In this document: positions 5,258 to 64,000 of the stretch, piece by piece
Layout: each line of letters opens with the position of its first letter
Position numbering within the stretch: position 1 is the first letter of the stretch
Assembly (NCBI GenBank): GCA_937930175.1
Contig: CALGLP010000023.1
Span: forward strand, 100,872-164,871
Reading direction: 5' to 3'
Origin: an uncultured bacterium
GTDB taxonomy: Bacteria; Omnitrophota; Gorgyraeia; Zapsychrales; Aceulaceae
DNA length: 64,000 bases
Program-made: the position numbers and the translations under genes
Notes under the pieces: model-generated
Database searches by the model: none
Told to the model about the DNA's origin: nothing
What the model saw: only the letters and a program-made list of their open reading frames with translations

Positions 5258-6703
5258 ATGAAACGCAAAGATCTTCTTATTTTTGAAATCATAGAAAATC
5301 AGCTTAGGGTTTTGCGGGCAAAATTCCTCTCGGACCAATCCTTGCATGTTGTGAGTTTCCATGTGTTTCCCTTGGAGCAGCCGCAGCGGGAGAACTTTCC
5401 TAAGATATTGTCATCGTTTCTCACTGCCAAGGATAAGCGAAGTCAGGTCATTGCTGTCATTGCGCGCAATCAGGTGATCCTTAAGAACTTTTCTTTTCCT
5501 TCGCATTCTAAAGACGAGCTGCGAAAAATGATCACGTTGCAGATGGTGGCCCAGGTTCCCTATGCGCGTGAAGATATTGTTTTTGATTATAATGTCTTGG
5601 GCCAAGATTCTCGAGGGTATACCAGTGTTTTAAGCGCTGTTGTTCATAAGGAAGCTATTGATGATCTTTTTAAGATGTTTAAGTCTGCAGGACTTACGAT
5701 CCACCAACTTGTTTTGAGCTCAAGCAGTATTGTCCGTTGGTTTTATGCGCAACAGCCGCAGCAAATAAAAAATGAGCATGCGATCACGGGTATCTTGAAT
5801 ATTGACCCGGCGCGCAGTGAATTTTGTTTTGCCCGCAAGGGGCAGCTTTTGTATGCGCGAGATATCAAATATGGCCAGCGTGATTTGGGAGCGGATACCC
5901 AAGATCTTTTCTTAAAAGACATTCTCCTGACCCTTGAAACATATGCCCGTGACCATGCTAGGGATGTTATTGATCATATGACGATTCTTGCTCCGGTGCA
6001 GATTCAGGGTCTTTTGCGTGAGAAGTTTCAGGCGCAGAGAAATATTATTGTGGATTTTGTTGACCCCTATGCGTCGATTACAGACTCTAAGAATGTGTCG
6101 ATGATGGAGGTTTTGCAAGCAGGGCATTTGTCTCCGGTTGTTTGTCTTGGTGCGGCACAGGAAAGTCATAAAATTTCTTTGAATCTTCTTCCTGAGGACG
6201 TGAGGAAAAGCCAAAGGGCAACAGCGCAAAAATGGCAGTTGGCTCAGCTCTTTGTTTTAGTTTTGATTAACGTTGCTTTATTTTTTTCTGTTTCTTTTCG
6301 GGCTTTGTATCAAGACCAGGCGCAGCTTAGTGATCTCAAAAAGCAGGTCGTTGAGATGCGGTCGCGTGTTGATGCTATTAATCGCCAGAGTGAAAAGCTT
6401 AAGCAAATTCAAGCGCATTTTCAGCCCCAAGGATCCGCGGTGGATATTATTTATCATCTTTATGACATGACTCCTAAGGAAATCTCTTTTCAGCTGTTGT
6501 ATCTTGATCGTGATAATAATTTGACCATTCAGGGGATCGCGGAAACGCGCTCGAGCGTCAATGATTTCAACCGTAGCTTGACAAAAAATCCTTTGTTTAA
6601 AGATGTGAGTCTGCAGTATGCGGCCCAGCGAAGATTTTTTGAGGGTGAGTTGACGGATTTTAAAATAACCGCGGTTGTTAATGACGCCAAGGAGCCCCAA
6701 TGA
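5258..6703 (+). CDS. GspL-like assembly protein: PilM-like cytoplasmic actin-fold domain, one TM segment, and a PilN-like periplasmic coiled-coil domain
   Basis: The 481-aa product has a single central TM (LAQLFVLVLINVALFFSVSF). A coiled-coil region follows it (QDQAQLSDLKKQVVEMRSRVDAINRQSEKLKQIQ). The gene sits between gspK and gspM. Confidence 0.5.
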   Translation: MKRKDLLIFEIIENQLRVLRAKFLSDQSLHVVSFHVFPLEQPQRENFPKILSSFLTAKDKRSQVIAVIARNQVILKNFSFPSHSKDELRKMITLQMVAQVPYAREDIVFDYNVLGQDSRGYTSVLSAVVHKEAIDDLFKMFKSAGLTIHQLVLSSSSIVRWFYAQQPQQIKNEHAITGILNIDPARSEFCFARKGQLLYARDIKYGQRDLGADTQDLFLKDILLTLETYARDHARDVIDHMTILAPVQIQGLLREKFQAQRNIIVDFVDPYASITDSKNVSMMEVLQAGHLSPVVCLGAAQESHKISLNLLPEDVRKSQRATAQKWQLAQLFVLVLINVALFFSVSFRALYQDQAQLSDLKKQVVEMRSRVDAINRQSEKLKQIQAHFQPQGSAVDIIYHLYDMTPKEISFQLLYLDRDNNLTIQGIAETRSSVNDFNRSLTKNPLFKDVSLQYAAQRRFFEGELTDFKITAVVNDAKEPQ

Positions 6704-7474: not shown

Positions 7475-10400
7475 GTGCAAAACAGGGTAGGGCATATGAT
7501 AAAGAGTATAAAAACTTATAAGAATTCTCTTTTATACAAAGCCATCATTTTGTGCCTTTTGTTCTCTTTTGGGCTCATGAGCATTGCTCCTCAAGAAGCC
7601 TTGTCTCAAACCCTGGCACCAGCTATTAGTAATACCCTCATCCCCTTAAGCCCGGCTTTCACACCTACCCTGGTTCGTGGAATACGTGTCTACCCTGACA
7701 ATCCCCTGAAGTTCGACTTTATTGTCGATTCTGGTGATTCCGGGCTTCAAGGGGATGAGTTAAAGAGCGAAAGCGAAAAGCTTATCCGCTACTTCCTGGC
7801 AAGTCTTACTCTTCCAGAGAATGATCTCTGGGTCAACCTTTCTCCCTATGAAAAAGACCGCATCGTTCCAGCAGAGCTTGGGACTACCGAGATGGGTATT
7901 GATATGCTTGCCCAAGACTATCTCTTAAAGCAAATAACTGCCTCTTTAACCAATCCTGATAGTGATCTTGGTAAAGAATTCTGGCAAAAGATTTACAAGC
8001 AATCCTATGAGAAATTCGGGACAACGAACGTTCCTGTCGACACCTTTAACAAGGTCTGGATCATGCCCGATAAGGCTGAAGTCTACGTTCAAGAGGATAA
8101 GGCCTTTGTCGTTGAATCGCGATTAAAAGTGATGTTAGAACAGGATTACCTCGCGATTCAACAAGCTCATAGCTCATCGCTCATAGCTGATAGCAAAACC
8201 AGCGAGCCAAGAGCCAAGAGCCAAGAGCTCGCCTCCCAGATTGTTAGGGAGGTTTTTATCCCTGTCCTTGAGAAAGAAGTCAATGAAGGCAAGAACTTTG
8301 CCCAGCTAAGGCAGATCTACAACAGCATTATCTTAAGCTACTGGTATAAGACGAATCTCAAGAACTCAATACTGAATAAGGTGTATGCGGATAAGAGAAA
8401 GGTTAAAGGACTAGAAGTCGTGAATAGTGAAAAGTATCTAGTATCTAGCCAAAAAAGCAATGAAGAGTCGTTAGAAAATGGCGAAGAAAAGCACCGGATA
8501 CTAGATACCAGATACCCTTCACAAACTCAGAATAATTCTTCTCTAGATACTATTCACTCTTCACCAGATACTGTTCAAATCATTTACCAACAATACCTCC
8601 AAACCTTTAAAAAAGGCGTTTGCAATATGATGAAGGTCGAGTATGACCCTTACACCAAGAAGAACATCCCCCGGAAATACTTTGCGGGAGGGGTGACGAC
8701 AGGAGACATAGAGAAGGTTTACAAAGAGACCGGCGCCCCGACCGCTGGCAGCGCACTTATTCGTAATTTTAAGAAAGCTACTTTAATAACGCTTATTTCT
8801 TTAATGCTTTTATCAGATCCTGTCCAGGCAAATATGGCAGCTGATGCTAATAAGAAAATGATTGAAGATATCATCGAAATGTTTGAAGAATCTCTTGGTC
8901 CAGAGAAGGCAAAAGAAATTGCCTATGATTATGTCAATACAAATCCAGAACTACGAGATAAGCTTCTTGCTGATGCGATCGCCAAGGCTCTTCGACCACC
9001 TGACGGGACTATTGATCTTGTTGGCATGCCAGAAGATTTTGAGGATCAAGAAATACCAGCTCCAGGGATCAATCTTGGCCGCTTTTCTTCTTTGGAATTT
9101 GATCATAATTCGTTTTCGCAAGATGCACCAAAAATAGAAAGGGATTCACTGAGAGAGGATGCCATGGCAAATGGAGAGATTGTCGATCGTCAAATAATTA
9201 TGTTGCCAGATGGCAGCAAAGTAACAATTGATTTTCTGCCATATTATTATCCTCCGGGTGGTCGTGTTGGGTCTATTGTAGACGAAAATTATATTGAGTT
9301 ATATCTCAGCGTATTCTTTGATGATATTGAAAATATTTCTATTGATATGCAGGATCCAAATAGTTTCTTAGGGTCCTTTTTAAATAAAGATTTGTTTTCG
9401 TCGAAAGAAGGAAAACTTGCTTTCCTGAAAGAGTGGATACGAACAGTCATGATTTATGAAATAACTAATGTTAATAGAAAAAAAGATCAATTTGAAGATA
9501 ACAAATTTCCAGATCTTGATAAATTGCTTGATCATTACCGTGTTCCCTATGGTAACCGTTCTTATCAGACTGCTGAAGCATTTGAGGCCTATTTGGCTAT
9601 GCTAGCATCAAGCCGAGATGCCAAAATGGTTATGGCGCAACTCTTTTTGTCAGAAATGCAAATACGAACTCCAATCCATTATGCGTCCAAGATGATCCTA
9701 AGAGAAATATTAGATACCTTAGGGTATAAAAAGTTTGTCTTCGCAAAAGAAAAGGAATTTTCTGAAAATACTGAAGAATCTATTGAGAAAGCATATATCA
9801 AGGGAGAGTATTTTCATGATTATGAAATGCTGTCAGAATTTATGCAGTTGCTTAAGGATAGCGAAATTATTCAAGCGGCAAAAGATTTGCATCGGAAAAT
9901 TTTCAACAAAGAAGCTTACAATATCGACGACTATATTTTTTCATTTATTAAGCAGTATTTTGATGAACAATGGCCTTCCAAAGACCTGTATCCTTTTAAT
10001 AATGACACCATTAATTATGAAAATCTTTCTGCGAATGAATTTCGAGAAATACTACAAAAGGCAATCAACCAATTTTCTGATGGATTTTGGACCTATAGCC
10101 CTTTCAATGAAGAACAAAAACCTGAATTATTTTTAAATATTATCAAGAAATCTCCGGTCCTTGGCCTTCAGAATTTCGGGATTGCTTTCCGCTCACTGAA
10201 CAGCAATAAAACAAGAAGGGAATTTGCTGATGGGTTGATGCTTATTTTTGAAAATAATCCTGAAATTGTTTCAACATATGCGGTTGATATTGTTGTGAAT
10301 AATTTAGATTTTTTTATGGATAAAGCATCTGGATTTAACAACAACCTCAAGAAAACACCTGAATACGAGAAAATACCGATTTTCATTTCTTCACTGAGAA

Positions 10401-13400
10401 CCCTCGCTGACTCCAAAGCACCCTTTAGCGACGTGAGCGAAGTGATAAAAGCTGCTTTAAAAAACAAGCATGCTCTCATCGTAGAATATCTAGATACGCA
10501 GATTGATTCCAATCAAATTTTAAGGGATGAGAATCATTTTAATATGTTGACCTATGCTGTTTATGAAATAGAGTTATCGCCTAATAAGAAAATGAAATAT
10601 CTCAAAGTATTGTATGACATTGCAATAAACAAAGTTAATGATTTTGAGCGATTTAAGCACATACGTGCGCTTAGTTCCTTAGTCAGATTGATCGAAGAGG
10701 ACATGCCTTTGCTGGAAGCAATAGATGGACCATTCATCGAGAATCTTAAGACTTTATTAGCCTCGAAGACTTATCCTGACTACAAGATGATGCGAAAAAC
10801 CAATGAGGTGAATGTCGCGCTCTACAATCCACTTGACCCTGAATACGTTATATCAAGATTTATAGACGCAGGATACACGAAAAGCACAAAAGATAATTTG
10901 ATTGTATTAACAAAAACGCTAAATGGGAAAAACGTAACAGTTACCCTTGATCCCACTGGAGACGCAGATAATTATCAAGGTCAGATATTCAAGCTTATGC
11001 TTGACCCAAAAATAAATATTATTAGCTACAGCGGTCATGCAGGAATGGGGGCAACTTTGTTGTTTGCTTTATATCAAGCCCCTGATTTAAAAGATAACCT
11101 GCAAGCAGGCTCAAAGATAATCGCACTCTTAGCATGCTACAGTGCACAGAATTATTTGACACAAGTTATGCAAAAATATCAATATTCTCATTTTTTTGGA
11201 ACATTAACGGATTCATATATGCCAGACGATACAGATGCGCTATTAAACTTGCTCGAGGGTTACAGCTTAGAGGAGTCTTGGGAAGAGATCAGTCGGCGCA
11301 TTTCTGAGCAGGAGCAGGAGGCTTATGGGGGAAGAGTAGAGTATATTTCTCCGAATAATGAGGAACTGTTAGATTATTTAGATTTGGATGGGGATGGTTA
11401 CCCTGATGGAAAAAATAGAGCGGAAAATATTTATTTAACGCCGTTGTCTGATATTTTTCTACTTGAACAGGAAAATTTTAATTATGAGCCTGGTGGAAAC
11501 ATAGACGAAGAAAGAATTGTTTCTAATAAAGTAGGAATCGTAACTGAGAGAGTAAAACATTTCTTTAGATACAATGATTTGCTAAAGACTTTTTCTGAAA
11601 GAATAAACCCTGGAACATTTGAGAGGCCACTGCAGGATCAACAAAATGCATTGTTTGTCGAAGAAAACCGAGTTGCCTTTCAAGACCTTTCCTATGATAT
11701 GAACGTTAATCTTGGATATCGAAACAAATCAGAAGCAGTATTGATAATGATGAGCTTGTGGGAAGCAAATAAATATTTCTCAGGGGATGATGTTTTTGAT
11801 CAAGTAAGAGGGCTTCAATTAGTTGCGGAATTTGTAAAATATTTTAATAAAGAGCATTTATTTCCACTTTTTCTGGAGAAATATAAGCTAAAGTATAAGG
11901 GTATTACGTTATCGACACTCATAAAGACACTAGATATTTATAAAACAGAAGATCGCATTGAAGCAATAAAAGAAATATTAAAGATTTTTAATTATAAGGA
12001 AATATTGAGTGAGGATGAGTTGAAAGATAAGTTGAAAAAAGAGGGATTGCTCTCGGGCTCTGCGGCAACAGGCCAGAATCTAACACCTCAAAAAGATCCT
12101 ATTTTTAAAGGTGTGTATAATCCTGAAGCTATCCCTCCGGGGGCAACCATTGAAGGTTATGGACGAAAAGTTAATAATAAAATGATTTATTATCCTTTGG
12201 CCCTGGGACAGGATTGGCTCTCTCCTGTTCTTTCTGCTATGGTGAACAACACGGATCTTTCTGTTGTTTTTAGAAGATCTCCTAAGGAGGGCCTAGCTCT
12301 TAAGGAGGGCAAAAATCCCACGAAAACCGAGGAAGTCTGGATCGTCAAGGCCGTGGCGCCGGGTGAAAAAGGCAAGAAGGCCGTGGCGTCGTCAAGTGCG
12401 AGCGTTAATCAAGGTTCAGCAAGCGTGTCGTCGTCGAATATTGTGTTCTTAAGAAATTTAAAACAATTAGAAGGGCGCACTGTTTCTTTTGACGGCAAAG
12501 AATATGCATTGAATATTGAGATAGAAGGGGAAAGCGTTAGCATGTACCTCTTTGATGATTTTGGAAGAAGAACTTATCATCCTATTGTTCGCTTGGGGAT
12601 AGATTCAAGCCACGTAGATTTGGCCATGATTGATATTTTTGAGTTTTCTTTGGGAAGCGTAGCTTTTTCTCATGACCATCCCCGTTATGGCAACGAAAAA
12701 AAAGCGATGGAAGCGATTGCGCAAGGAAGAATGGAGGAGGGCTTTGAAGATTTAGAACTCGCCAACTTGAAAGAAAAAGATCCGGATGCCTATATAAAAG
12801 AACTTATTAAAAGGCAAAACGCCACATACAATAAGAACGCAATGAATTTATCGGGAAAAGGAGTTGAACAGCAAGTTTTAAAACATATTCAAAGCACTAT
12901 TCCTCAGAATTCTTTCGCAAGCATTCTTGTGCGTTTGCCGGAGTTTCAAGTCTTTGGGATCCAATCGCCTTATGCAATTTTTTATGATGAAAAAAATGAC
13001 TTTTATAAAAAGTTAAAAGAAGATAATATTGGGCATTATTTTATTATTGAATATGAGGAAGACCGACCTAGAGCTGAGCTATTTCTGGAAGAAGGAGATT
13101 CTGTTTTAACATTAAAAGAGCTGGGAGCACTTCTTATTTTTAAAGATCCTTCTTTTTCAAAGAATTTTGCACGTGCTGGTTGGTACTGGGAAAGGGATGG
13201 GGATTTCTTAGAACTCGATGGCTTGGAAGTTATCGAGGAATTAATTAATTATCAAAACGAAGCAAGGGAGCATTATAAGCTTGTCAGCCTGGGGCTTAAA
13301 AAGGATGACCTGCTTGGCTTTACTCGGATAGATGAAAACGGTGATCCTATGATTGAGAATTTTGTTTTTCAGATTATTCTTGGCGGCACGGCCTCAGCCC

Positions 13401-28058: not shown

Positions 28059-28136
28059 CGGGGAGTAGCGCAGCTTGGTTAGCGCGTCTGTTTTGGGAAC
28101 AGAAGGTCGAGAGTTCAAATCTCTCCTCCCCGACCA
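28059..28136 (+). tRNA. tRNA-Pro (anticodon TGG)
   Basis: Hand-folded cloverleaf. Acceptor cggggag/ctccccg, D-stem gcgc, anticodon stem tctgt/acaga with loop ttTGGga. T-stem gagag/ctctc with loop ttcaaat. CCA is encoded. Confidence 0.85.
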
Positions 28137-53169: not shown

Positions 53170-53658
53170 ATGAGTGAAGAATTGAAGAATGAGGGTGTTC
53201 CCGTAATGCCCGAGACCCAAACAGATGTTGTTGCCATGATCAAAAAGATGCAGCAGCAATTAATTGCGCTCGATAAGAAGATCGAGATCTTGATGGGTCG
53301 GCCCAGAGAAAGTTCATTTGGGCATAAGCCTTACGCGCGACCATCTGGTTCTTTTAGTCGCCCTTCGTTTCATGGCAGAAGCGATCGTCGTCCGTCTGAC
53401 AGGGGAGAATATCGTCATGGCGGCCGATCATCTTTTGGCAGCCGCGATTCATTTCGCTCAGGAGAAACGCGGGAAGGTCATTTTAGAGAGCGAGATTCGA
53501 GGGAAGGTTCTTCGTTTGAGAAAAAACCGTATAGCAGCGCAAGGTCTTATCATGGCGGTGAGAGATCACGTAGCAGCGATAGGTCTCATGGTGGAGAACC
53601 GCGTGCCTTTGCATCCAAAAAGAAGCCATTCTTTCTAAAGCGCAAAGAACGGGAATAG
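53170..53658 (+). CDS. Arg/Ser/Gly-rich intrinsically disordered protein (162 aa) with a short N-terminal helical segment
   Basis: The C-terminal ~110 aa are low-complexity (SFGHKPYARPSGSFSRPSFHGRSDRRPSDRGEYRHGGRSSFGSRDSFRSGETREGHF...). RBS gaaaggaagg. Confidence 0.5.
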   Translation: MSEELKNEGVPVMPETQTDVVAMIKKMQQQLIALDKKIEILMGRPRESSFGHKPYARPSGSFSRPSFHGRSDRRPSDRGEYRHGGRSSFGSRDSFRSGETREGHFRERDSREGSSFEKKPYSSARSYHGGERSRSSDRSHGGEPRAFASKKKPFFLKRKERE

Positions 53659-54098: not shown

Positions 54099-54515
54099 TT
54101 GGAACAGTATTTAGGGAAGCTAAAAGAAGGTGGTTTTAAGCTCACGCCGCGCAGGCAGGCGATCATTGAGCTTTTTGTTGATGGGAAGACTCATCTGACG
54201 CCGGAAGAGGCGTGGGAGGGGCTCAAGAAGCAGTTTGACCGGTGCGGGCTTCCCAGCGTGTACCGCAATCTTGAGAGTTTGGTTGAATGTGGAATATTAA
54301 CGAGGATCCAGCAGTTTGACCGCAAAAAGCATTACGGGTTATGTTCCGCGCTTCACGGCGATCATCACCATCATCACATCACCTGTATCAAGTGCGGGAA
54401 GGTCGATGAGATAAAAGACTGCGCGATTAATGAGGTTAAGAAGATCAAGGGGTATAAAGTCGTGAGTCATTTTATGCAGGTTAACGGGGTATGCGCCGGT
54501 TGCTCTAAAGAGTAA
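54099..54515 (+). CDS. Fur-family transcriptional regulator (Fur/Zur/PerR-type). TTG start.
   Basis: DNA-binding helix region LTPRRQAIIELF...PSVYRNLESLVECGIL. HHHHH plus CxxC...CxxC metal sites (ITCIKCG...CAGCS). RBS gaggagg precedes the TTG start. Confidence 0.8.
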   Translation: MEQYLGKLKEGGFKLTPRRQAIIELFVDGKTHLTPEEAWEGLKKQFDRCGLPSVYRNLESLVECGILTRIQQFDRKKHYGLCSALHGDHHHHHITCIKCGKVDEIKDCAINEVKKIKGYKVVSHFMQVNGVCAGCSKE

Positions 54516-57896: not shown

Positions 57897-57967
57897 CACT
57901 TCTTTAAAGTTGCCTTCCTATCTTGCTTTCAAAATAATTATTGACAAATCCTGCTTGGTGATTATAC

Positions 57968-57990
57968 TTGATAATGAAAATCATTTCCAT
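57968..57990. promoter_or_regulatory. Fur box-like site (ttGATAATGAAAATCATTtcc) upstream of fur-family gene 2
   Basis: Matches 15 of 19 positions of the classical GATAATGATAATCATTATC Fur box. It lies 15 nt upstream of the ATG at 58005. Confidence 0.5.
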
Positions 57991-58004: not shown

Positions 58005-58478
58005 ATGTCAAGGGGTAATTGTCAGGGACAGGGTTGGTGGCATGGGAAGTTCAGGGGTTGCGGGTATCGGCTCACTCTAGGTCGCGAGGCGATCCTTGAT
58101 GTTTTGTCTAAAACGGATGATCATTTAAGCGCTGAGGATATCTATATGAAGATCCATCCCAAGCATCCGGGGGTAGGGTTAACAACGATTTATCGCACCT
58201 TGGATGTATTATCAAATCTTGGGATGGTTTACAAGCTTGATTTTGGAGACGGGAGAGCCCGTTATGAATTTGCTGAGGGACCTAAGGGTGCGCATCATCA
58301 TCACCACTTGGTCTGCACGGAATGTGGGAGAGTTGTTGAATATACTGATTTTATAGATGAAGAAATGGAGCTTCTTAAGCAAACTGAGGATGGGCTTTCT
58401 AAAAAGTATCATTTTAAGATTACGAATCATCTCATACAGTTTTATGGTTTATGTCAAGAATGTAACGGCAAGAAATAA
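58005..58478 (+). CDS. Fur-family transcriptional regulator, second copy (possibly PerR-like)
   Basis: Helix region LSAEDIYMKIHPKHPGVGLTTIYRTLDVLSNLGMVY. HHHHH and CTECG...CQEC metal sites. Confidence 0.8.
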   Translation: MSRGNCQGQGWWHGKFRGCGYRLTLGREAILDVLSKTDDHLSAEDIYMKIHPKHPGVGLTTIYRTLDVLSNLGMVYKLDFGDGRARYEFAEGPKGAHHHHHLVCTECGRVVEYTDFIDEEMELLKQTEDGLSKKYHFKITNHLIQFYGLCQECNGKK

Positions 58479-58501
58479 TTAATTTTTTTTTCATTCTTAG
58501 T

Positions 58502-58514
58502 GAAAATGATTTCC
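58502..58514. promoter_or_regulatory. Fur-box-like half-palindrome (GAAAATGATTTCC) upstream of the DUF5320 gene
   Basis: Shares the core AAATSATTT with the other three sites. Confidence 0.4.
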
Positions 58515-58539
58515 AATAAAAAGAAAGGAGACGATTGCA

Positions 58540-58875
58540 ATGCCAAATAAAGACGGAACAGGCCCTATGGGGCAAGGTGCGATGACGGGAAGAGGAAATG
58601 GGTATTGTGTTGTACCGCTTAATAGAGAAAATGGTAGGATTTTTGATGGAGGTGGTTTTTATGGCAGAGGTGGAGGGAGGGGAAGGCGTAATTGTTTTTA
58701 CGCGACTAATCTTCCGGGATGGATGAGGGGTCAAGGAGGCGGGCAGGCGTTTGGCGGCTTTGGAAGAGTAATGTCCAAGGAAGATGAGCTAGCGGCCCTT
58801 AAAAATAAAGTTGTTTATCTTAAAGAGGAGCTTGAAGCTGTTCAGGGGCGTGTTCAGGTCTTAGAAAGTAAATAA
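58540..58875 (+). CDS. DUF5320-like Gly-rich small protein with C-terminal coiled-coil
   Basis: N-terminus MPNKDGTGPMGQGAMTGRGNGYC. C-terminal coiled-coil (ELAALKNKVVYLKEELEAVQGRVQVLE). Confidence 0.55.
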   Translation: MPNKDGTGPMGQGAMTGRGNGYCVVPLNRENGRIFDGGGFYGRGGGRGRRNCFYATNLPGWMRGQGGGQAFGGFGRVMSKEDELAALKNKVVYLKEELEAVQGRVQVLESK

Positions 58876-58921
58876 AAAGAAAGAAAATAGTTATTATAGC
58901 GTTTCACTAAAAAAGGAGTTT

Positions 58922-59305
58922 GTGCTTATGAGAGTCGGAGTCGTACTAGAGGATGAGTCGGGTGTGCAGGGCAATGTTTGTGCACATTTTGGTCAGTGTA
59001 AGTTTTTTTTCTTAGCGGATATTGACAAGGAAAAGAAGAAAATTATTAGTACGCGTATTGTGCCTAATACTGTTTCTCACGGGGGAGGCGGATGCGTCGC
59101 TGTTGATGAGATATTAAAGCATAAGGTTACTCATGTCATTGCCGGAGGAATGGGTGGTGGCGCTCAGCAGAAGTTTGCGCAAGCAGGCGTGCAGGTGTTT
59201 GGTTATTCTGGCAATGTGCAGAAAGCCTTGGATGATTTTATGAATAACACGTTGGGCGGCCTTAATGCGTGTAAAGATCACGGCCATGCCGGAGAATGTC
59301 ATTAA
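58922..59305 (+). CDS. Dinitrogenase FeMo-cofactor-binding family (Nitro_FeMo-Co; NifB C-terminal / NifX-like) small protein
   Basis: Family pattern VCAHFGQCKFFFLADID ... THVIAGGMGGGAQQKFAQAGVQV. Confidence 0.6.
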   Translation: MLMRVGVVLEDESGVQGNVCAHFGQCKFFFLADIDKEKKKIISTRIVPNTVSHGGGGCVAVDEILKHKVTHVIAGGMGGGAQQKFAQAGVQVFGYSGNVQKALDDFMNNTLGGLNACKDHGHAGECH

Positions 59306-59322
59306 GCAAAGGAGATGCCAAA

Positions 59323-60015
59323 ATGGAAAATGTAACGGACGCTGTAAATCGAATTCCGCTCATTGGCGAAAAAGCTCCAGCCTTTGAAGCAGATACGACT
59401 CAGGGTAAAATTAAGTTTCCTGATGATTATAAAGGAAAATGGGTGATTTTATTTAGCCATCCGGCAGACTTTACCCCGGTGTGCACCACGGAGTTTATGA
59501 CGTTTGCGGCCATGGAAAAAGAATTTGAAGCTCTCAATTGTAAGCTTATTGGCTTGTCTATTGATAGCCATTATAGCCATATCGCATGGTTAAGAACAAT
59601 CAAGGAAAAGATTGAATATAAGGGCATGAAGAACGTTGAGATAAAGTTTCCGGTTATCGCGGATGTTAAAATGGATGTTGCTCATAAGTTTGGGATGGTT
59701 CAGCCTGCCGCTAGTGATATTAGTCCGGTCCGCGCTGTGTTTTTTATGGATCCGGAGGCTAAGGTCAGGGCGATGGTTTTTTATCCATCATCGATGGGGC
59801 GAAATTTTCAGGAAATCAAGCGCATGATCATCGCGATGCAGACTGCGGATACCTATAAAGTGGCGACTCCCGCTGATTGGCAACCCGGCGATGATGTGAT
59901 TGTGCCACCTCCGGGAAGTTGCGGCATGGCTAAGGATAGGGTTGATAATGCTCAAAAAGAAGGTATTAAATGTCTTGATTGGTTTATGTGCTTAAAGCCG
60001 CTTAAGCTTAAGTAA
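59323..60015 (+). CDS. Peroxiredoxin (AhpC/TSA family, Prx6-like 1-Cys type)
   Basis: Peroxidatic Cys motif FTPVCTTEF. Motif HIAWLRT. RBS aaaggaga before the ATG at 59323. Confidence 0.85.
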   Translation: MENVTDAVNRIPLIGEKAPAFEADTTQGKIKFPDDYKGKWVILFSHPADFTPVCTTEFMTFAAMEKEFEALNCKLIGLSIDSHYSHIAWLRTIKEKIEYKGMKNVEIKFPVIADVKMDVAHKFGMVQPAASDISPVRAVFFMDPEAKVRAMVFYPSSMGRNFQEIKRMIIAMQTADTYKVATPADWQPGDDVIVPPPGSCGMAKDRVDNAQKEGIKCLDWFMCLKPLKLK

Positions 60016-60035
60016 TGTGAGGAAGGAAGGGTGTT

Positions 60036-60413
60036 ATGAAAATATGTATTACGTCGGAAGGGAAAACGTTGGATTCCAAGGTCGATCCTCGCTTCGGCCG
60101 GTGTCAGTATTTCATTTTTTTTGATATGGATGCCGGTTCTTTTGAAGTTCAAGAGAACACTAGCGCTCAGTTTCAAGGAGGAGCCGGTATTCAATCAGGC
60201 CAGTTTGTCGTATCCAAAGGTGTCCAAGCCGTGCTTACGGGAAATGTTGGGCCTAACGCGCATCAGGTGTTATCGGCCGCAGGGATTAGTATAATGACCG
60301 GAGTTTCTGGAACGGTAAAAGATGTTATTGCAGCGTATAAAAAAGGAGAACTGAAGGCGGCTTCCGGTCCAAGCGTCGGTTCGCATTTTGGTATGCCCAG
60401 CAAGAATAAATAG
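60036..60413 (+). CDS. Second Nitro_FeMo-Co family small protein
   Basis: DPRFGRCQYFIFFDMD ... VQAVLTGNVGPNAHQVLSAAGISI. Confidence 0.6.
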   Translation: MKICITSEGKTLDSKVDPRFGRCQYFIFFDMDAGSFEVQENTSAQFQGGAGIQSGQFVVSKGVQAVLTGNVGPNAHQVLSAAGISIMTGVSGTVKDVIAAYKKGELKAASGPSVGSHFGMPSKNK

Positions 60414-60423
60414 GAGGTGTAGG

Positions 60424-60594
60424 ATGCCTTATGGTCAAGGTTGTGGAAAAATGAATGGAAATCGTCAGGGTTCTGGGCCTGGGGGAAATTGTGTTTGCCC
60501 AAAATGCGGGGAACGCATTTCGCATCAGCAGGGAGTACCTTGTTATGAAGTGAATTGCCCTAAATGTGGGACAAAAATGGTCCGAGAGCAATAA
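60424..60594 (+). CDS. Gly-rich small zinc-ribbon protein (two CPKCG motifs)
   Basis: MPYGQGCGKMNGNRQGSGPGGNCVCPKCGERISHQQGVPCYEVNCPKCGTKMV. The Gly-rich N-terminus resembles the DUF5320 protein. The start at 60424 has RBS taggaggtg. Confidence 0.5.
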   Translation: MPYGQGCGKMNGNRQGSGPGGNCVCPKCGERISHQQGVPCYEVNCPKCGTKMVREQ

Positions 60595-61207
60595 CGTGGA
60601 TAAAGAAATTCTAGAAAATTTTGAGCGATATTTAGAGCGCAAAGCTCTCTATAAAAGTTTTGGCTACGACGTAGATCAGGAGAGGGGATTTGTTCTTGAG
60701 CAAGCTAAGCCACTTATGGGGAAGATCCTTGAGGCTGGAACAGGAAAGGGACATTTTGCGCTTGCTTTGGCTAAGGCCGGGTATTCGTTTGTGACTTTTG
60801 ATATCTCAGCGCAGGAGCAGCATTTCGCAAGATTAAATATCGCGCATTTTGGTTTTGAAAAACAGGTTGACTTTAAAATTGAAAATGGCGAGCACACAAG
60901 TTTTATTAGCGGTAGTTTTGATGTTATTTTTTCGGTTAATGTTCTTCATCATCTGCATCATCCTTATATGGTTCTTGATGAGTTCATCCGAATACTTTCT
61001 CCAGCTGGAAAAATAGTTTTAGCTGATTTTACTGAAAAAGGATTTCGTATGATGGAAAAGATTCACGCTTCTGAGGGCAATGCCCATGAGGTGGGGAGCG
61101 TGGCACTGGATGATGTCAAAAAATATTTTTTAGAAAAACATTTTATTGTCAACGAAGCGCAGACTGATTATCAACGTGTTATTGTTGCCTCCCAAGGAAG
61201 TGCTTAG
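60566..61207 (+). CDS. Class I SAM-dependent methyltransferase
   Basis: Motif I ILEAGTGKGHFALALAKAGY. Acidic post-I FDIS. The true start may be the GTG at 60596, directly after the upstream stop. Confidence 0.7.
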   Translation: MGQKWSESNNVDKEILENFERYLERKALYKSFGYDVDQERGFVLEQAKPLMGKILEAGTGKGHFALALAKAGYSFVTFDISAQEQHFARLNIAHFGFEKQVDFKIENGEHTSFISGSFDVIFSVNVLHHLHHPYMVLDEFIRILSPAGKIVLADFTEKGFRMMEKIHASEGNAHEVGSVALDDVKKYFLEKHFIVNEAQTDYQRVIVASQGSA

Positions 61208-61210
61208 AGC

Positions 61211-62065
61211 ATGATCATTTCAGTGGCAAGCGGAAAAGGCGGTACAGGAAAGACAACGATTGCGGTCAATTTGGCGTTATCTCTTGGCAGCGTTCAATTT
61301 CTTGATTGTGATGTTGAAGAGCCTAACGCGCAGATATTCTTGAAAGCGCGTATAACCGGCGATAAGAAAGCCTTTGTTCTTGTGCCTAAGGTCGACGAAG
61401 ATAAATGCATTTATTGCGGTCAATGTCGCGAGGTTTGCGCTTATAACGCTATTGCTGTTTTGCCTGGAAGTGGCGGGGCAAAGGGAAAGATTCTTGTTTT
61501 TCCTTATCTTTGTCACGGATGCGGCGCGTGCAGCTTGTTTTGTCCTCAAGGAGCAATAAAGGAAGTTCACAAGGAGATCGGCCTGATCGAAGTTGGTGAT
61601 AAAGACGAAATACAGTTTGTCCACGGCCGCCTTAATATCGGCGAGACCATGTCGCCGCCGCTGATCCGACAGGTTAAAGAATATATCAATCCTACAAGGA
61701 CGGTTATTATTGACGCGCCACCAGGAACATCGTGTCCGGTTATTACAGCCGTGAAGGGAAGTGATTTTTGTATCTTGGTCACGGAGCCGACACCTTTTGG
61801 GTTGAACGATCTTATCCTGGCGGTTGAGGTTTTAAAGAAAATAGAGATACCTTTTGGCGTTATTATTAATCGCGCGGACATCGGTGACCATGGTGTTGAA
61901 CTATATTGTCAAGAAAATAATATTCCGATTTTGATGCGCATCCCTTTTGACCGAGAGATCGCTAAATTATATTCAAACGGTACGCCATTGATCGTCAAAA
62001 AACCGGAGTATATCGCGCAGTTTAAAGATATGTTTAATCTGATCACAAAAGGGTTATCGGCATGA
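61211..62065 (+). CDS. MinD/ParA-superfamily P-loop ATPase with inserted 2x[4Fe-4S] ferredoxin domain
   Basis: Deviant Walker A SGKGGTGKTT. Ferredoxin Cys clusters CIYCGQCREVCAYNAI and CHGCGACSLFCPQGAI. Confidence 0.75.
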   Translation: MIISVASGKGGTGKTTIAVNLALSLGSVQFLDCDVEEPNAQIFLKARITGDKKAFVLVPKVDEDKCIYCGQCREVCAYNAIAVLPGSGGAKGKILVFPYLCHGCGACSLFCPQGAIKEVHKEIGLIEVGDKDEIQFVHGRLNIGETMSPPLIRQVKEYINPTRTVIIDAPPGTSCPVITAVKGSDFCILVTEPTPFGLNDLILAVEVLKKIEIPFGVIINRADIGDHGVELYCQENNIPILMRIPFDREIAKLYSNGTPLIVKKPEYIAQFKDMFNLITKGLSA

Positions 62066-62517
62066 GACTTGTTCCCATCGGCGTCATTCACACCCCGTTT
62101 AAATGTAAAAAAGAAACGCCTATCCAGCCGTTTAAATCAAAAGCAGTCGGCACTGTTGAAGTCTTTAGCAAGTACGCAGAAGGCTTAAGCGATGTTGAAG
62201 GTTTTTCGCATGTGCTGCTGGTTTACCGATTTCATAAGTCAAAAGGATATAAGTTAAAAACGAGGCCATTTCTTGATAAATGTGAGAGAGGTATTTTTTC
62301 ATGTCGCTATCCTCGCAGGCCAAATCAGATCGGGATCAGTGTTGTTAAATTATTGCGCAGGGATAAGAATATTTTAACCGTTAAGCAAGTCGACATGCTA
62401 GACGGGACACCTCTTTTAGATATCAAATCTTACAATCCGCACTTTGATCCTAAAAAGGGGATTAAGGTTGGCTGGTATAAGAATGTCATGAAAGCTATTC
62501 CTCACAAGGAGATATAA
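62062..62517 (+). CDS. TsaA/YaeB-family SAM-dependent methyltransferase (UPF0066)
   Basis: N-terminal IGVIHTPF motif. The ~150-aa size fits. Its start overlaps the upstream stop (ATGA). Confidence 0.7.
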   Translation: MRLVPIGVIHTPFKCKKETPIQPFKSKAVGTVEVFSKYAEGLSDVEGFSHVLLVYRFHKSKGYKLKTRPFLDKCERGIFSCRYPRRPNQIGISVVKLLRRDKNILTVKQVDMLDGTPLLDIKSYNPHFDPKKGIKVGWYKNVMKAIPHKEI

Positions 62518-62521
62518 TTTT

Positions 62522-63303
62522 ATGCTTGAAGGTGCCATTTTGTTGGCAAGCGCGATTGTTGCGGGGATTTTAGGCGGACTTCTGGGGATAGGCGGGGCGT
62601 GATTATCATGCCAGTCCTGTGTTTTGTCTTTGACGTATCAACACCATTTGCGGCAGGAACAACAGCGCTGGCAGTTTTCTTTACGACCTTAAGCGGCGGA
62701 TACAAACATATTAGATTAGGGCATGTCGATATAAAATCGTTGGCGCCTATCATGATCGCAGGTGCCATATCGACAGCATTTTTTTCTTATCTGTTTATAT
62801 TTATGGCTCAGAAACCTATGTGGCTTGATCTGGGAGTAGGATGTATTTTTCTTTTTATCTCTCTTCGTATGGCTTATGAAGGTATCGTTAGAGGTAAAGA
62901 AGCGCAAGAGGTAAAGGATCAGTCTATAAAAGGCATGTCCACGGTAAAAATATTTATTGGAATCGTCTCAGGTGTACTTCCAGGCCTTTTTGGTATCGGA
63001 ACAGGTGCTGTGCTTGTTCCCGCATTTAATTATTGTCTCAAGAGCCCCATTAAGGTGGCTATTGGTTCTTCACTGGCCTGTTTCGCGGTGAACGCTTTGA
63101 TCAGTTCAGCGTTTAAGTTTTTTCAAGGTTTTGTGTTGTTGGATAAAGCACTTATTCTTTGCGCAGGAACAGTCCTTGGTGCATCTATAGGAGCCAAGCT
63201 GAACAAAGGATTTCCTCCATCATTATTGAAACTTTTGTTTGGCTTAGTATTTTTATATGTTTCTTTTAAGTATATTTTTCTTTTTTGGGGAGTGAAGGTT
63301 TAA
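62522..63303 (+). pseudogene. TSUP (TauE/SafE, DUF81) family membrane transporter disrupted by a -1 frameshift in a G4 run
   Basis: A 26-codon ORF (MLEGAILLASAIVAGILGGLLGIGGA*) carries TM1 and the GxGGG motif. The family continues in another frame from 62599 (VIIMPVLCF...). One extra G in ggcgggg would give the contiguous ...GIGGGVIIMPVL. Confidence 0.5.
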
Positions 63304-64000
63304 TGAAAACGTTGTTAGTCATTAGCGGAAAAGGCGGAACAGGCAAGACCGTTGTTACGGCTTCGTTTGCCGCTTTAGCCAAAAACAAGGTCATGGTCGA
63401 TTGCGACGTCGACGCGGCAGACTTGCATCTTTTGCTTCATCCTGTGATTAAAGAGCGTCATGCATTTAGAAGCGGCCAAAGCGCGGTCATTGATAATTTA
63501 CTTTGTAAGAAATGTGGCAAATGCGCGTCAGTGTGCAGATTTGCAGCCATTAAAGCTGATTATACGGTTGAGCATTTTTCCTGCGAGGGGTGCGGACTTT
63601 GTCGTCGTGTGTGTCCTCAGGGTGCAATACATATGGAAGAAAATGTTGCCGGGGAGTGGTTTGTCTCGGAGATAAAGCATGGCCCTTTTGTGCATGCCAA
63701 GCTTGGTATCGCCCAGGAGAATTCAGGTAAGCTCGTGGCAAAGATCAGACAGGTTGCCAAAGAATTGGCCGAGCAACAAGCCCTTGATTATGTCATTATC
63801 GACGGGCCGCCGGGCATAGGATGTCCGGTGATCGCCTCGCTCTCAGGCGTTGATTGCGCTCTGATCGTGACGGAGCCAACGCTTTCGGGCTTGCATGACG
63901 CCAAGCGTGTGGTAGAAGTTGCAAAGCATTTTAATATTCCAGCCAAGCTTGTCATCAATAAATATGATTTAAATTTAACAATGACGGGGATGATCGAGGA
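63303..64000 (+). CDS. Second MinD-type P-loop ATPase with 2x[4Fe-4S] ferredoxin insert. 3' partial; it continues beyond the window.
   Basis: SGKGGTGKT Walker A. CKKCGKCASVCRFAAI and CEGCGLCRRVCPQGAI. The frame is open to nt 64000. Confidence 0.75.
   Translation, partial: MKTLLVISGKGGTGKTVVTASFAALAKNKVMVDCDVDAADLHLLLHPVIKERHAFRSGQSAVIDNLLCKKCGKCASVCRFAAIKADYTVEHFSCEGCGLCRRVCPQGAIHMEENVAGEWFVSEIKHGPFVHAKLGIAQENSGKLVAKIRQVAKELAEQQALDYVIIDGPPGIGCPVIASLSGVDCALIVTEPTLSGLHDAKRVVEVAKHFNIPAKLVINKYDLNLTMTGMIE

Follow-up and report, generated by a model that had tools for sequence, protein, structure and literature searches.

A predicted Fur-controlled gene array of the orange-protein type with free-standing glycine-rich peptides in an uncultured Omnitrophota bacterium

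The stretch of DNA considered here, termed "the window", comprises 64,000 nucleotides of contig CALGLP010000023.1 from an uncultured bacterium of the Omnitrophota. Its last part is occupied by a gene array which brings together a Fur-family regulator, two NifX-like proteins of the Nitro_FeMo-Co family, two MinD-type ATPases with ferredoxin motifs, a DUF5320 protein, and a small glycine-rich Cys peptide. Genes were called from a listing of open reading frames (ORFs) combined with Pfam and NCBIfam scans, and coordinates refer to the whole 64-kb window. The features are as follows.

57941..57968, + strand: sigma-70-like promoter, the best of the region (TTGACA, 16 nt, TATACT; 11/12 matches), immediately 5' of Fur box 1
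57975..57989: Fur box 1 (aTGAAAATCATTTCCAt), 16 nt 5' of the fur start codon and just 3' of the -10 element
58005..58478, + strand: Fur-family regulator, 157 aa (PF01475, 112.8 bits)
58501..58515: Fur box 2 (gTGAAAATGATTTCCAa), 25 nt 5' of the DUF5320 start codon
58540..58875, + strand: DUF5320 protein, 111 aa (PF17253)
58928..59305, + strand: Nitro_FeMo-Co (NifX-like) protein #1, Cys/His type, 125 aa (PF02579)
59323..60015, + strand: 1-Cys peroxiredoxin (NCBIfam PRK13189, 330 bits; cut-off 211)
60036..60413, + strand: Nitro_FeMo-Co protein #2, orange-protein (Orp8) type, 125 aa, tail-less (PF02579)
60424..60594, + strand: Gly-rich Cys peptide, 56 aa, with a strong ribosome-binding site (AGGAGG) 5 nt 5'
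60596..61207, + strand: class I S-adenosylmethionine-dependent methyltransferase (Pfam/NCBIfam)
61211..62065, + strand: MinD/ParA-type P-loop ATPase, paralogue 1 (MinD1; Orp3/Orp4-type), with two CxxCxxCxxxC motifs
62062..62517, + strand: TrmO_N/TsaA-type methyltransferase domain protein, 151 aa (TIGR00104, 127.6 bits; cut-off 93)
62599..63303, + strand: TauE/SafE-family membrane protein (PF01925)
63303..64000, + strand: MinD-type ATPase with 2x[4Fe-4S], paralogue 2 (MinD2), cut by the window end (283 aa in the public contig L001)

Every element listed in the initial annotation of this region was recovered on the + strand by the ORF calls and the Pfam/NCBIfam scans; the list had left out the fur gene (58005–58478) and the TauE gene (62599–63303). 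The genes of the array all lie on the + strand and are separated by gaps of -4 to 81 nt. Terminator-like sites were not found within these intergenic gaps, and Rfam detected no RNA elements in the region. The public contig L001 is identical to the window over 12,790 nt (0 mismatches) and carries the array, on the same strand, about 5 kb beyond the window end. In L001, MinD2 is followed by genes for DUF2099, a NifU_N/IscU-like protein, Mrp/NBP35, ARMT1/DUF89, AAA_23, DsrE, and a protein with metallo-beta-lactamase fold; the Mrp/NBP35 protein, encoded 5 kb downstream of Nitro_FeMo-Co protein #1, shows the motifs GKGGVGKS and CPHC. With a length of about 11 kb and 17–18 genes on one strand, the whole array is operon-like, and the region inside the window accounts for its first two-thirds. 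The nearest named relatives of MinD1 belong to Candidatus Omnitrophota.

Conservation of the neighborhood was analyzed in 80 loci collected by a scan with the ATPase alignment, one genome per species, by searching the window proteins against all ORFs of each locus. Because the loci were found through MinD1, this protein occurs in 80/80 by construction. MinD2 was detected in 78 of the 80 loci and an ORP-type NifX protein in 71 (any NifX-like gene: 73), followed by Mrp (42), the Cys/His NifX protein (40), the NifU_N (IscU-like) protein (34), the Cys peptide (32), DUF5320 (31), the metallo-beta-lactamase-fold protein (20), ARMT1 (15), Fur in the same position (13), and the class I methyltransferase (12). 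TrmO was found in five loci and peroxiredoxin in two, while TauE, CcdA and DsrE, unrelated flanking genes of the window which served as internal controls, occurred in one locus each. Chance juxtaposition was ruled out as an explanation, with core synteny in 71–78 of 80 loci versus 1–3 for the flanking CcdA, TPR, TauE and DsrE genes. Synteny of the core is kept far beyond chance across bacteria and archaea. The bacterial loci of the sample belong to Omnitrophota, Clostridia, Dehalococcoidia, Ignavibacteria, Acidobacteriota, Desulfobacterota, Leptospirales, Zixibacteria and Armatimonadota, the archaeal ones to Bathyarchaeia, Methanocellaceae, Thermoplasmatota and Altiarchaeota; other lineages are also represented. 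Almost all lineages with the cluster are known from anoxic habitats, in agreement with the recurrence in anaerobes claimed by the initial annotation. The claim of a conserved neighborhood is upheld for the core and fails for the peroxiredoxin and the two methyltransferases. Peroxiredoxin, TauE and TrmO are lineage-specific inserts outside the conserved core.

The two NifX-like proteins of the window, which score 89.8 and 71.1 bits against PF02579, differ in their relationships. Nitro_FeMo-Co protein #2 aligns over residues 2–113 with the orange protein (ORP) of Desulfovibrio gigas (PDB 2WFB; E 2.3e-18) and is similarly close to MTH1175 (E 8e-20). Nitro_FeMo-Co protein #1 carries the motif CAHFGQC near its N-terminus and ACKDHGHAGECH at its C-terminus (CKDH); it has no significant match to the ORP structure 2WFB and aligns to positions 273–365 of the NCBIfam MrpORP model (E 5e-14). 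In MrpORP, an Mrp/NBP35 P-loop domain bearing a CxxC motif is joined to a Di-Nase domain, in which CxHFGxC is accompanied by Cys/His motifs at the C-terminal end (motifs: PMC6345978). Neither Nitro_FeMo-Co protein #1 nor the separate Mrp reaches the cut-off of the MrpORP model (450 bits). Judging from their motifs, the Cys/His NifX-like gene and the separate Mrp/NBP35 gene look like an apparent split MrpORP.

MinD1 combines a deviant Walker A motif (SGKGGTGKT) with an inserted 2x[4Fe-4S] ferredoxin domain and is 32% identical to MinD2. Two ORP reference loci, from Desulfovibrio sp. X2 and a metagenome-assembled genome (MAG) of the Desulfobaccales, were found via the D. gigas ORP sequence. In both, ORP is followed by two genes for MinD plus ferredoxin and then by a NifX-like protein with a GAHFGHCD motif; in Desulfovibrio sp. 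X2, two genes for PAS/sigma-54 activators (OrpR-like) and small Gly-rich proteins lie ahead of the cluster. The window ATPases are 41–45% identical to the first ATPase of these loci, and in the alignment MinD1 and MinD2 split into the same two orthologous groups as the ATPases of Desulfovibrio sp. X2 and the Desulfobaccales MAG. No substitution affects the eight ferredoxin cysteines or the deviant Walker A motif in this alignment. The PDB contains no structure of the combined MinD-ferredoxin architecture, matches being restricted to its separate halves. A literature search for COG1149 together with COG1433 returned nothing, and membership of SipB of Pyrococcus furiosus in this ATPase family could not be shown.

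The ORP complex and the orp cluster of Desulfovibrio were described by Fievet 2011, as cited in PMC6345978 and PMC8359166, and published work covers complex formation, iron-sulfur (Fe-S) transfer by MrpORP, and redox-dependent regulation. Orp3 and Orp4 are MinD-like proteins with two [4Fe-4S] motifs each, while the names Orp5, Orp8 and Orp9 stand for a small Fe-S protein, the orange protein and MrpORP, respectively; the genes form the divergent operons orp3-orp4-orp5 and orp7-orp8-orp9, whose expression depends on sigma-54, IHF, and OrpR, an activator that senses redox conditions (PMC6345978, PMC8359166). MrpORP passes Fe-S clusters to Orp3-Orp4-Orp8 in vitro (PMC6345978). The window shares with the cluster of D. 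vulgaris Hildenborough and D. alaskensis G20 (Orp3, Orp4, Orp5, Orp7, Orp8, Orp9/MrpORP) the single-domain ORP-type NifX-like protein, the two paralogous MinD-like ATPases with two [4Fe-4S] motifs each, a Cys/His Di-Nase-type NifX domain plus an Mrp/NBP35 P-loop protein, adjoining small Gly- or Cys-rich proteins, and the restriction to anaerobe lineages. The locus is very probably an ORP-type cluster, and its core does not correspond to an undescribed system, as had been supposed initially.

In other respects the two systems differ. Desulfovibrio has two divergent operons, a fused MrpORP, and control by sigma-54, IHF and the PAS-[4Fe-4S] activator OrpR, whereas the window has a single same-strand array, two genes far apart in place of the fusion, and a Fur-family regulator with dFUR boxes. 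Peroxiredoxin, two methyltransferases, TauE, DUF2099 and the IscU-like gene are additional members of the array. The small proteins belong to different families as well, DUF5320 and the zinc-ribbon-like Cys peptide of the window contrasting with the equivalents compared in Desulfovibrio sp. X2. No gene for a small Cys protein of the Orp5/Dde_3197 type, which binds [2Fe-2S], occurs in the window; in Desulfovibrio sp. X2, the Orp5-like protein consists of a divergent NifX-like domain. The Cys peptide family differs from Orp5-like proteins, yet is fused to an Orp5-like domain in a Syntrophobacterales MAG (L068). NifX, NafY and the C-terminal domain of NifB have the same fold as the NifX-like proteins of the window and carry complex metal-sulfur clusters between proteins. 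In contrast to nitrogenase assembly, the window has no nitrogenase or NifEN/NifB radical-SAM context, and its NifX-like proteins fall into a different clade, with best matches to ORP, MTH1175 and TM1290-type proteins.

The presence of a "Fur-like operator", as stated in the initial annotation, was corroborated. Exactly two copies of the 15-mer TGAAAATsATTTCCA are present in the 64 kb, one on either side of fur (57975 and 58501), and the pair was the top-ranked inverted repeat of an independent repeat finder. Both boxes show one mismatch each to the dFUR box WTGAAAATNATTTTCAW, a 17-bp palindrome which was established for Fur of delta-proteobacteria on the basis of feoAB and fur promoters (PMC545781); the consensus is delta-proteobacterial, the host is not. 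The window box differs from the PerR consensus TTATAATNATTATAA and from the Zur consensus (both quoted in PMC545781). Of 10 orthologous loci, 9 have a box with at most three mismatches about 30 nt 5' of fur (background 0.15 per kb). Sites with at most two mismatches number 24 in 1.06 Mb, and 10 of these are located within 150 nt upstream of fur or DUF5320. Boxes also precede DUF5320 in L012, L013 and L041, and one Leptospirales locus has three boxes ahead of DUF5320 and no local fur gene. The delta-proteobacterial Fur regulon (Rodionov et al. 2004, PMC545781) likewise has the 17-bp palindrome 5' of fur itself, and FeoAB lies beside the cluster in some related loci; however, the published regulon does not contain the orp cluster.

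The regulator scores 143.8 bits with the NCBIfam model of Bacillus-type Fur versus 91.8 bits with clostridial PerR and 44 with Zur, and falls short of the equivalog cut-off of 220 bits; among solved structures its closest relatives are iron Fur proteins, 9ire scoring 114 bits compared to 79 bits for PerR 2fe3. Because the operator matches the iron dFUR box and the regulator is nearer to Fur structures than to PerR, the comparison points to iron rather than peroxide as the predicted signal in the lineage of the window. With good confidence, we predict that the array is under the control of Fur, and fur itself is predicted to be autoregulated.

If the Fur paralogue were instead a PerR-like peroxide sensor, the array might be a peroxide-stress regulon which repairs oxidized clusters, similar to the repair under oxidative stress envisaged by the initial annotation. 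Such a role would fit the peroxiredoxin gene inside the array of the window and of its relative L088, the additional similarity of the regulator to PerR (79 bits with 2fe3 and 92 bits with the clostridial PerR model of NCBIfam), and the response of the Desulfovibrio orp operons to redox potential (PMC8359166). However, the operator fits the iron dFUR box and not the PerR consensus, Fur models outscore PerR, and the peroxiredoxin, the only inserted gene that speaks for oxidative repair, is confined to two of the 80 loci and absent in L089. We consider a peroxide-stress regulon highly improbable.

Regulation of the cluster appears to vary between lineages. An OrpR-like sigma-54 activator adjoins the cluster in 11/80 loci, nearly all of them labeled as lineages of sulfate reducers or delta-proteobacteria, and DUF134, a predicted DNA-binding protein, in 21/80. 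Because Fur, OrpR-like proteins and DUF134 adjoin in different loci, the same module seems to be placed under different regulators by lineage.

Three Fur-family paralogues are encoded within about 15 kb, each preceding metal-related genes: 54099–54515, which precedes genes for a His-rich membrane protein, CcdA, a TPR protein and a DUF3299-like protein; 58005–58478, which precedes the ORP-like array; and L001 17755–18267 (about 69,000 in window numbering), which precedes genes for PTPS, a ZIP transporter and ferritin. Of the three, the middle one alone is associated with dFUR boxes.

Clustering of the remaining ORFs of the 80 loci, performed without bias towards the window proteins, revealed frequent neighbors that are absent from the window, namely a Zn_ribbon_8/FmdB-like protein with a Cys-rich tail (28/80), radical SAM proteins (23/80), the above-mentioned DUF134, the DUF364/DUF4213 "heavy-metal chelation" family (9/80), DUF1847 (7/80), CGGC (6/80) and FeoAB (4/80). 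This gene content bears on the idea that the MinD-like ATPases place the septum or the chromosome in anaerobes lacking canonical Min proteins, the metal centers being only redox sensors. Membership of the ATPases in the MinD/ParA family with its deviant Walker A motif is compatible with such a function, as are the shape defects in the absence of OrpR, the polar localization of MrpORP, and a C-terminal amphipathic helix (PMC6345978, PMC4672049). However, the conserved neighbors are metal-cluster proteins (NifX-like, Mrp, IscU-like, radical SAM, FeoAB, DUF364) and division genes do not appear among them; control by an iron-Fur box is hard to square with a housekeeping role in division, and the cluster is present in many archaeal lineages. 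A positioning function is thus judged improbable.

DUF5320 and the Cys peptide are the small proteins of the array. The DUF5320 protein matches PF17253 with 66.8 bits (cut-off 27) over model positions 1–97 of 99. It comprises an N-terminal MPxxDGTGPxGxGxMTGRG motif, a cationic segment rich in Gly, Arg and aromatic residues, and a C-terminal coiled coil; residues 1–75 contain 32% Gly and have an isoelectric point (pI) of 10.4. A literature search for DUF5320 yielded two incidental mentions only. In the Cys peptide, the disordered N-terminal part is rich in Gly, and the C-terminal part forms a knuckle with the pattern CxCxxC-x11-C-x4-CxxC and an additional His. It belongs to no Pfam family and is annotated as hypothetical in the sources; its family, with about 2,100 representatives at 50% identity, shows an invariant CxCxxC...C-x4-CxxC pattern plus His. 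In the AlphaFold model the N-terminal 20 residues are disordered and the knuckle has a predicted local distance difference test score (pLDDT) of about 88; a Foldseek search with the model returned generic zinc-ribbon/rubredoxin-knuckle matches only, none of which was significant (best E 0.34). Multiple copies of the knuckle (3–5) were observed in the long proteins P0361 and P0367 (600–1430 aa); P0361 also contains Pro-rich repeats, suggesting an extracytoplasmic location.

The two peptides had been noted to have related N-termini. For the pair encoded in the window this did not hold (direct BLASTP not significant, E 0.54); at the family level the relation was confirmed. Most orthologues of the Cys peptide start with MPRGDGTGPxGQGPGTGRG, the N-terminus of the window protein being shortened, and the four orthologues tested (4/4) match DUF5320 model positions 1–40 with E 2e-5 to 5e-3. 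A profile-profile comparison of the two families gave E 8e-5 over MPxxDGTGP. Of 73 loci, 17 encode an ORP-type protein with a (GMGR)n tail, mostly followed by a coiled coil, and the DUF5320 model scored above its gathering threshold on 8/8 such tails tested (31.7–47.7 bits). Direct fusions of the ORP domain with the Cys peptide are seen in L011, P0423 and P0448. Because of these fusions to ORP-like domains elsewhere, DUF5320 and the Cys peptide are, as far as sequence comparison can tell, free-standing versions of the Gly/Arg-rich tails of NifX-like proteins. A reading of the Gly-rich peptides as precursors of ribosomally synthesized and post-translationally modified peptides, with the methyltransferases as modifying enzymes, was ruled out, since the peptides are conserved in full length across phyla and fused to NifX domains; it is also countered by the presence of the methyltransferases in just 12/80 and 5/80 loci.

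Tails of this kind have been described for IssA, the iron-sulfur storage protein of P. furiosus, in which the cationic tail, rich in Gly and aromatic residues, is proposed to enclose anionic thioferrate formed on the NifX-like domain; an "IssX" clade with Gly-rich tails has been mentioned as uncharacterized (PMC5524996). The window has in common with IssA and "IssX" the IPR003731/Nitro_FeMo-Co domain and an associated cationic, Gly-rich, partly aromatic disordered segment, and with IssA the proposed electrostatic binding of an anionic inorganic Fe-S species. However, the IssA tail is part of the same polypeptide, whereas both NifX-like proteins of the window are tail-less and the segment resides on DUF5320 and the Cys peptide. 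The detached segments are moreover extended by a coiled coil or a Cys knuckle, the array also encodes dedicated ATPases, and repression by iron is predicted.

Based on this likeness, the NifX-like proteins and the Gly/Arg peptides might mineralize excess iron and sulfide as thioferrate-like particles, from which the ATPases would mobilize the stored material. The closeness of Nitro_FeMo-Co protein #2 to MTH1175, which has been placed in the IssA clade (PMC5524996), the resemblance of the tailed ORP-like proteins to the high-pI, Gly-rich tails described, and the ferritin gene and other metal-related genes nearby are in line with storage. However, induction by iron excess would be expected, and the boxes sit where Fe-Fur would repress; the ORP-type protein of the window is also tail-less. 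A storage function of the IssA type is considered unlikely.

The data are best accounted for by a Fur-controlled version of the anaerobe-specific ORP cluster which acts in the iron-regulated handling of metal-sulfur clusters, and we put the probability of this combined proposal at roughly 60%. Fe(II)-Fur bound to the two boxes, just 3' of the -10 element, would repress fur and the array, and low iron would de-repress them. The NifX-like proteins might hold anionic inorganic metal-sulfur species non-covalently, assisted by the cationic Gly/Arg segments which DUF5320 and the Cys peptide provide in detached form, in the way proposed for the IssA tail and thioferrate, while the coiled coil and the Cys knuckle would supply oligomerization and extra metal ligands. 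Because of the deviant Walker A motif, the two MinD-like ATPases are expected to be ATP-dependent dimer switches; they would carry [4Fe-4S] clusters and, together with Mrp and the IscU-like protein, might build or hand over Fe-S clusters. Peroxiredoxin, TrmO, TauE and DUF2099 would be accessories limited to this lineage. A role in metal-cluster trafficking, already suspected in the initial annotation, is the best reading of the function, and by itself we hold it to stand at about even odds. Transcriptomes of D. alaskensis G20 are compatible with iron-linked expression, as the orp genes Dde_3197–3199 co-vary with feoA and flavodoxin (PMC10533852), which are predicted members of the Fur regulon (PMC545781). 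IssA-clade proteins of Methanococcus voltae, at most putative orthologues of members of this cluster, rise along with FeoAB on pyrite (PMC9431491). As a functional analogy only, the Suf system of Escherichia coli likewise is an Fe-Fur-repressed Fe-S assembly operon for iron limitation and oxidative stress, with ATPase, scaffold and carrier; its core proteins are, however, not homologous, and no cysteine desulfurase was seen in the window array.

Several observations weigh against this proposal. The Cys peptide gene is absent in the close relative L088 (6378–6383), and in L089 its slot is taken by a 55-aa 2x[4Fe-4S] ferredoxin (6036–6203). With a ferredoxin in the slot in one relative and the gene missing from the other, the Cys peptide may be an exchangeable small component that binds metal or Fe-S. 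For 30 of the 80 loci, many of them represented by short contigs, neither of the two peptides and no tailed NifX protein could be found. Desulfovibrio uses a redox-sensing sigma-54 activator and not Fur, so that regulation is non-uniform. The discoverers of the ORP complex proposed septum positioning or cell division, and IssA is made under iron and sulfide abundance, which is the opposite of what Fur repression predicts. Co-transcription of the array is predicted from gene spacing and the absence of terminators, and the functional reading as a whole is likewise a prediction from sequence.

A further point against Fe-S handling, as cited in PMC6345978, is that the sole cofactor seen on an orange protein is a non-covalently bound Mo-Cu sulfide cluster, [S2MoS2CuS2MoS2]3-, and not an Fe-S cluster. 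The cluster might accordingly buffer or detoxify thiomolybdate and copper in sulfidic habitats, given that Nitro_FeMo-Co protein #2 is a clear ORP homologue and that the orp genes responded strongly in copper-exposure transcriptomes of strain G20. However, genes for Mo, W or Cu transport or sensing were not seen in the 80 loci, Fur, FeoAB, the IscU-like protein and Mrp all indicate iron, and in the same G20 data the orp genes track feoA and flavodoxin. A Mo/W/Cu thiometallate function is regarded as very unlikely.

In a more far-reaching form, the proposal of iron-regulated metal-sulfur handling would amount to a widespread pathway of anaerobic bacteria and archaea, separate from ISC, SUF and NIF, in which the ORP-type NifX protein, the detached tails, the MinD-like ATPases, Mrp and the IscU-like protein turn pre-formed inorganic iron-sulfide into protein-bound Fe-S clusters, with the N-terminal MPxGDGTGP motif docking the peptides on a NifX-like or ATPase partner; we offer this extension as a rather doubtful conjecture.

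Few "anaerobe-only" gene sets are as widely conserved as the ORP cluster, and for 15 years its role has been disputed between cell division and metal-cluster biology. With the ORP system already known, what is new is best described as a Fur-controlled single-array form with detached tails and lineage-specific inserts. New elements are the simple iron-Fur switch, kept in several phyla, which replaces the redox-sensing activator of Desulfovibrio, the association with Mrp and IscU-like Fe-S assembly proteins, and the fusions that link DUF5320 and the Pfam-less Cys peptide family to the Gly/Arg tails of IssA-like proteins; together, these favor a metal-sulfur cluster function. The Fur link and the relation of peptides and tails make the question of function easier to test and suggest which proteins to co-purify. 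If the proposal is true, it would bear on the ways in which strict anaerobes, among them uncultured groups such as Omnitrophota and Bathyarchaeia, acquire or store their Fe-S clusters.

The inserts of the array can be followed in its two close relatives. L088, whose MinD1 is 85% identical to that of the window, contains peroxiredoxin, TrmO and DUF2099 and lacks TauE, and L089 (MinD1 75% identical) has TrmO and DUF2099 and neither peroxiredoxin nor TauE; the TauE insert is found only in the genome of the window among the loci compared. The class I methyltransferase gene occupies the same position in Omnitrophota relatives. A TrmO_N/TsaA-type gene lies between the two MinD-like genes in the window, L088 (7852–8307), L089 (7852–8307) and L068, and in the window, L088 and L089 it overlaps MinD1 by 4 nt. 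DUF2099, for which Pfam notes conservation in archaea, comes after MinD2 (L001 12947–13885) only in the Omnitrophota sublineage of L001, L088 and L089; the 80 scanned loci do not contain it (0/80).

Elsewhere in the window, positions 53170–53658 encode a 162-aa protein with an N-terminal coiled coil and a long Arg/Ser/Gly-rich disordered region, which matches no Pfam family. The segment from 8000 to 12000 has a G+C content of 0.35–0.39, compared to about 0.43 elsewhere, and includes a dFUR-like site with two mismatches at 10528–10542. Three tRNA genes, at 28059, 31418 and 32721, are located between 28 and 33 kb.

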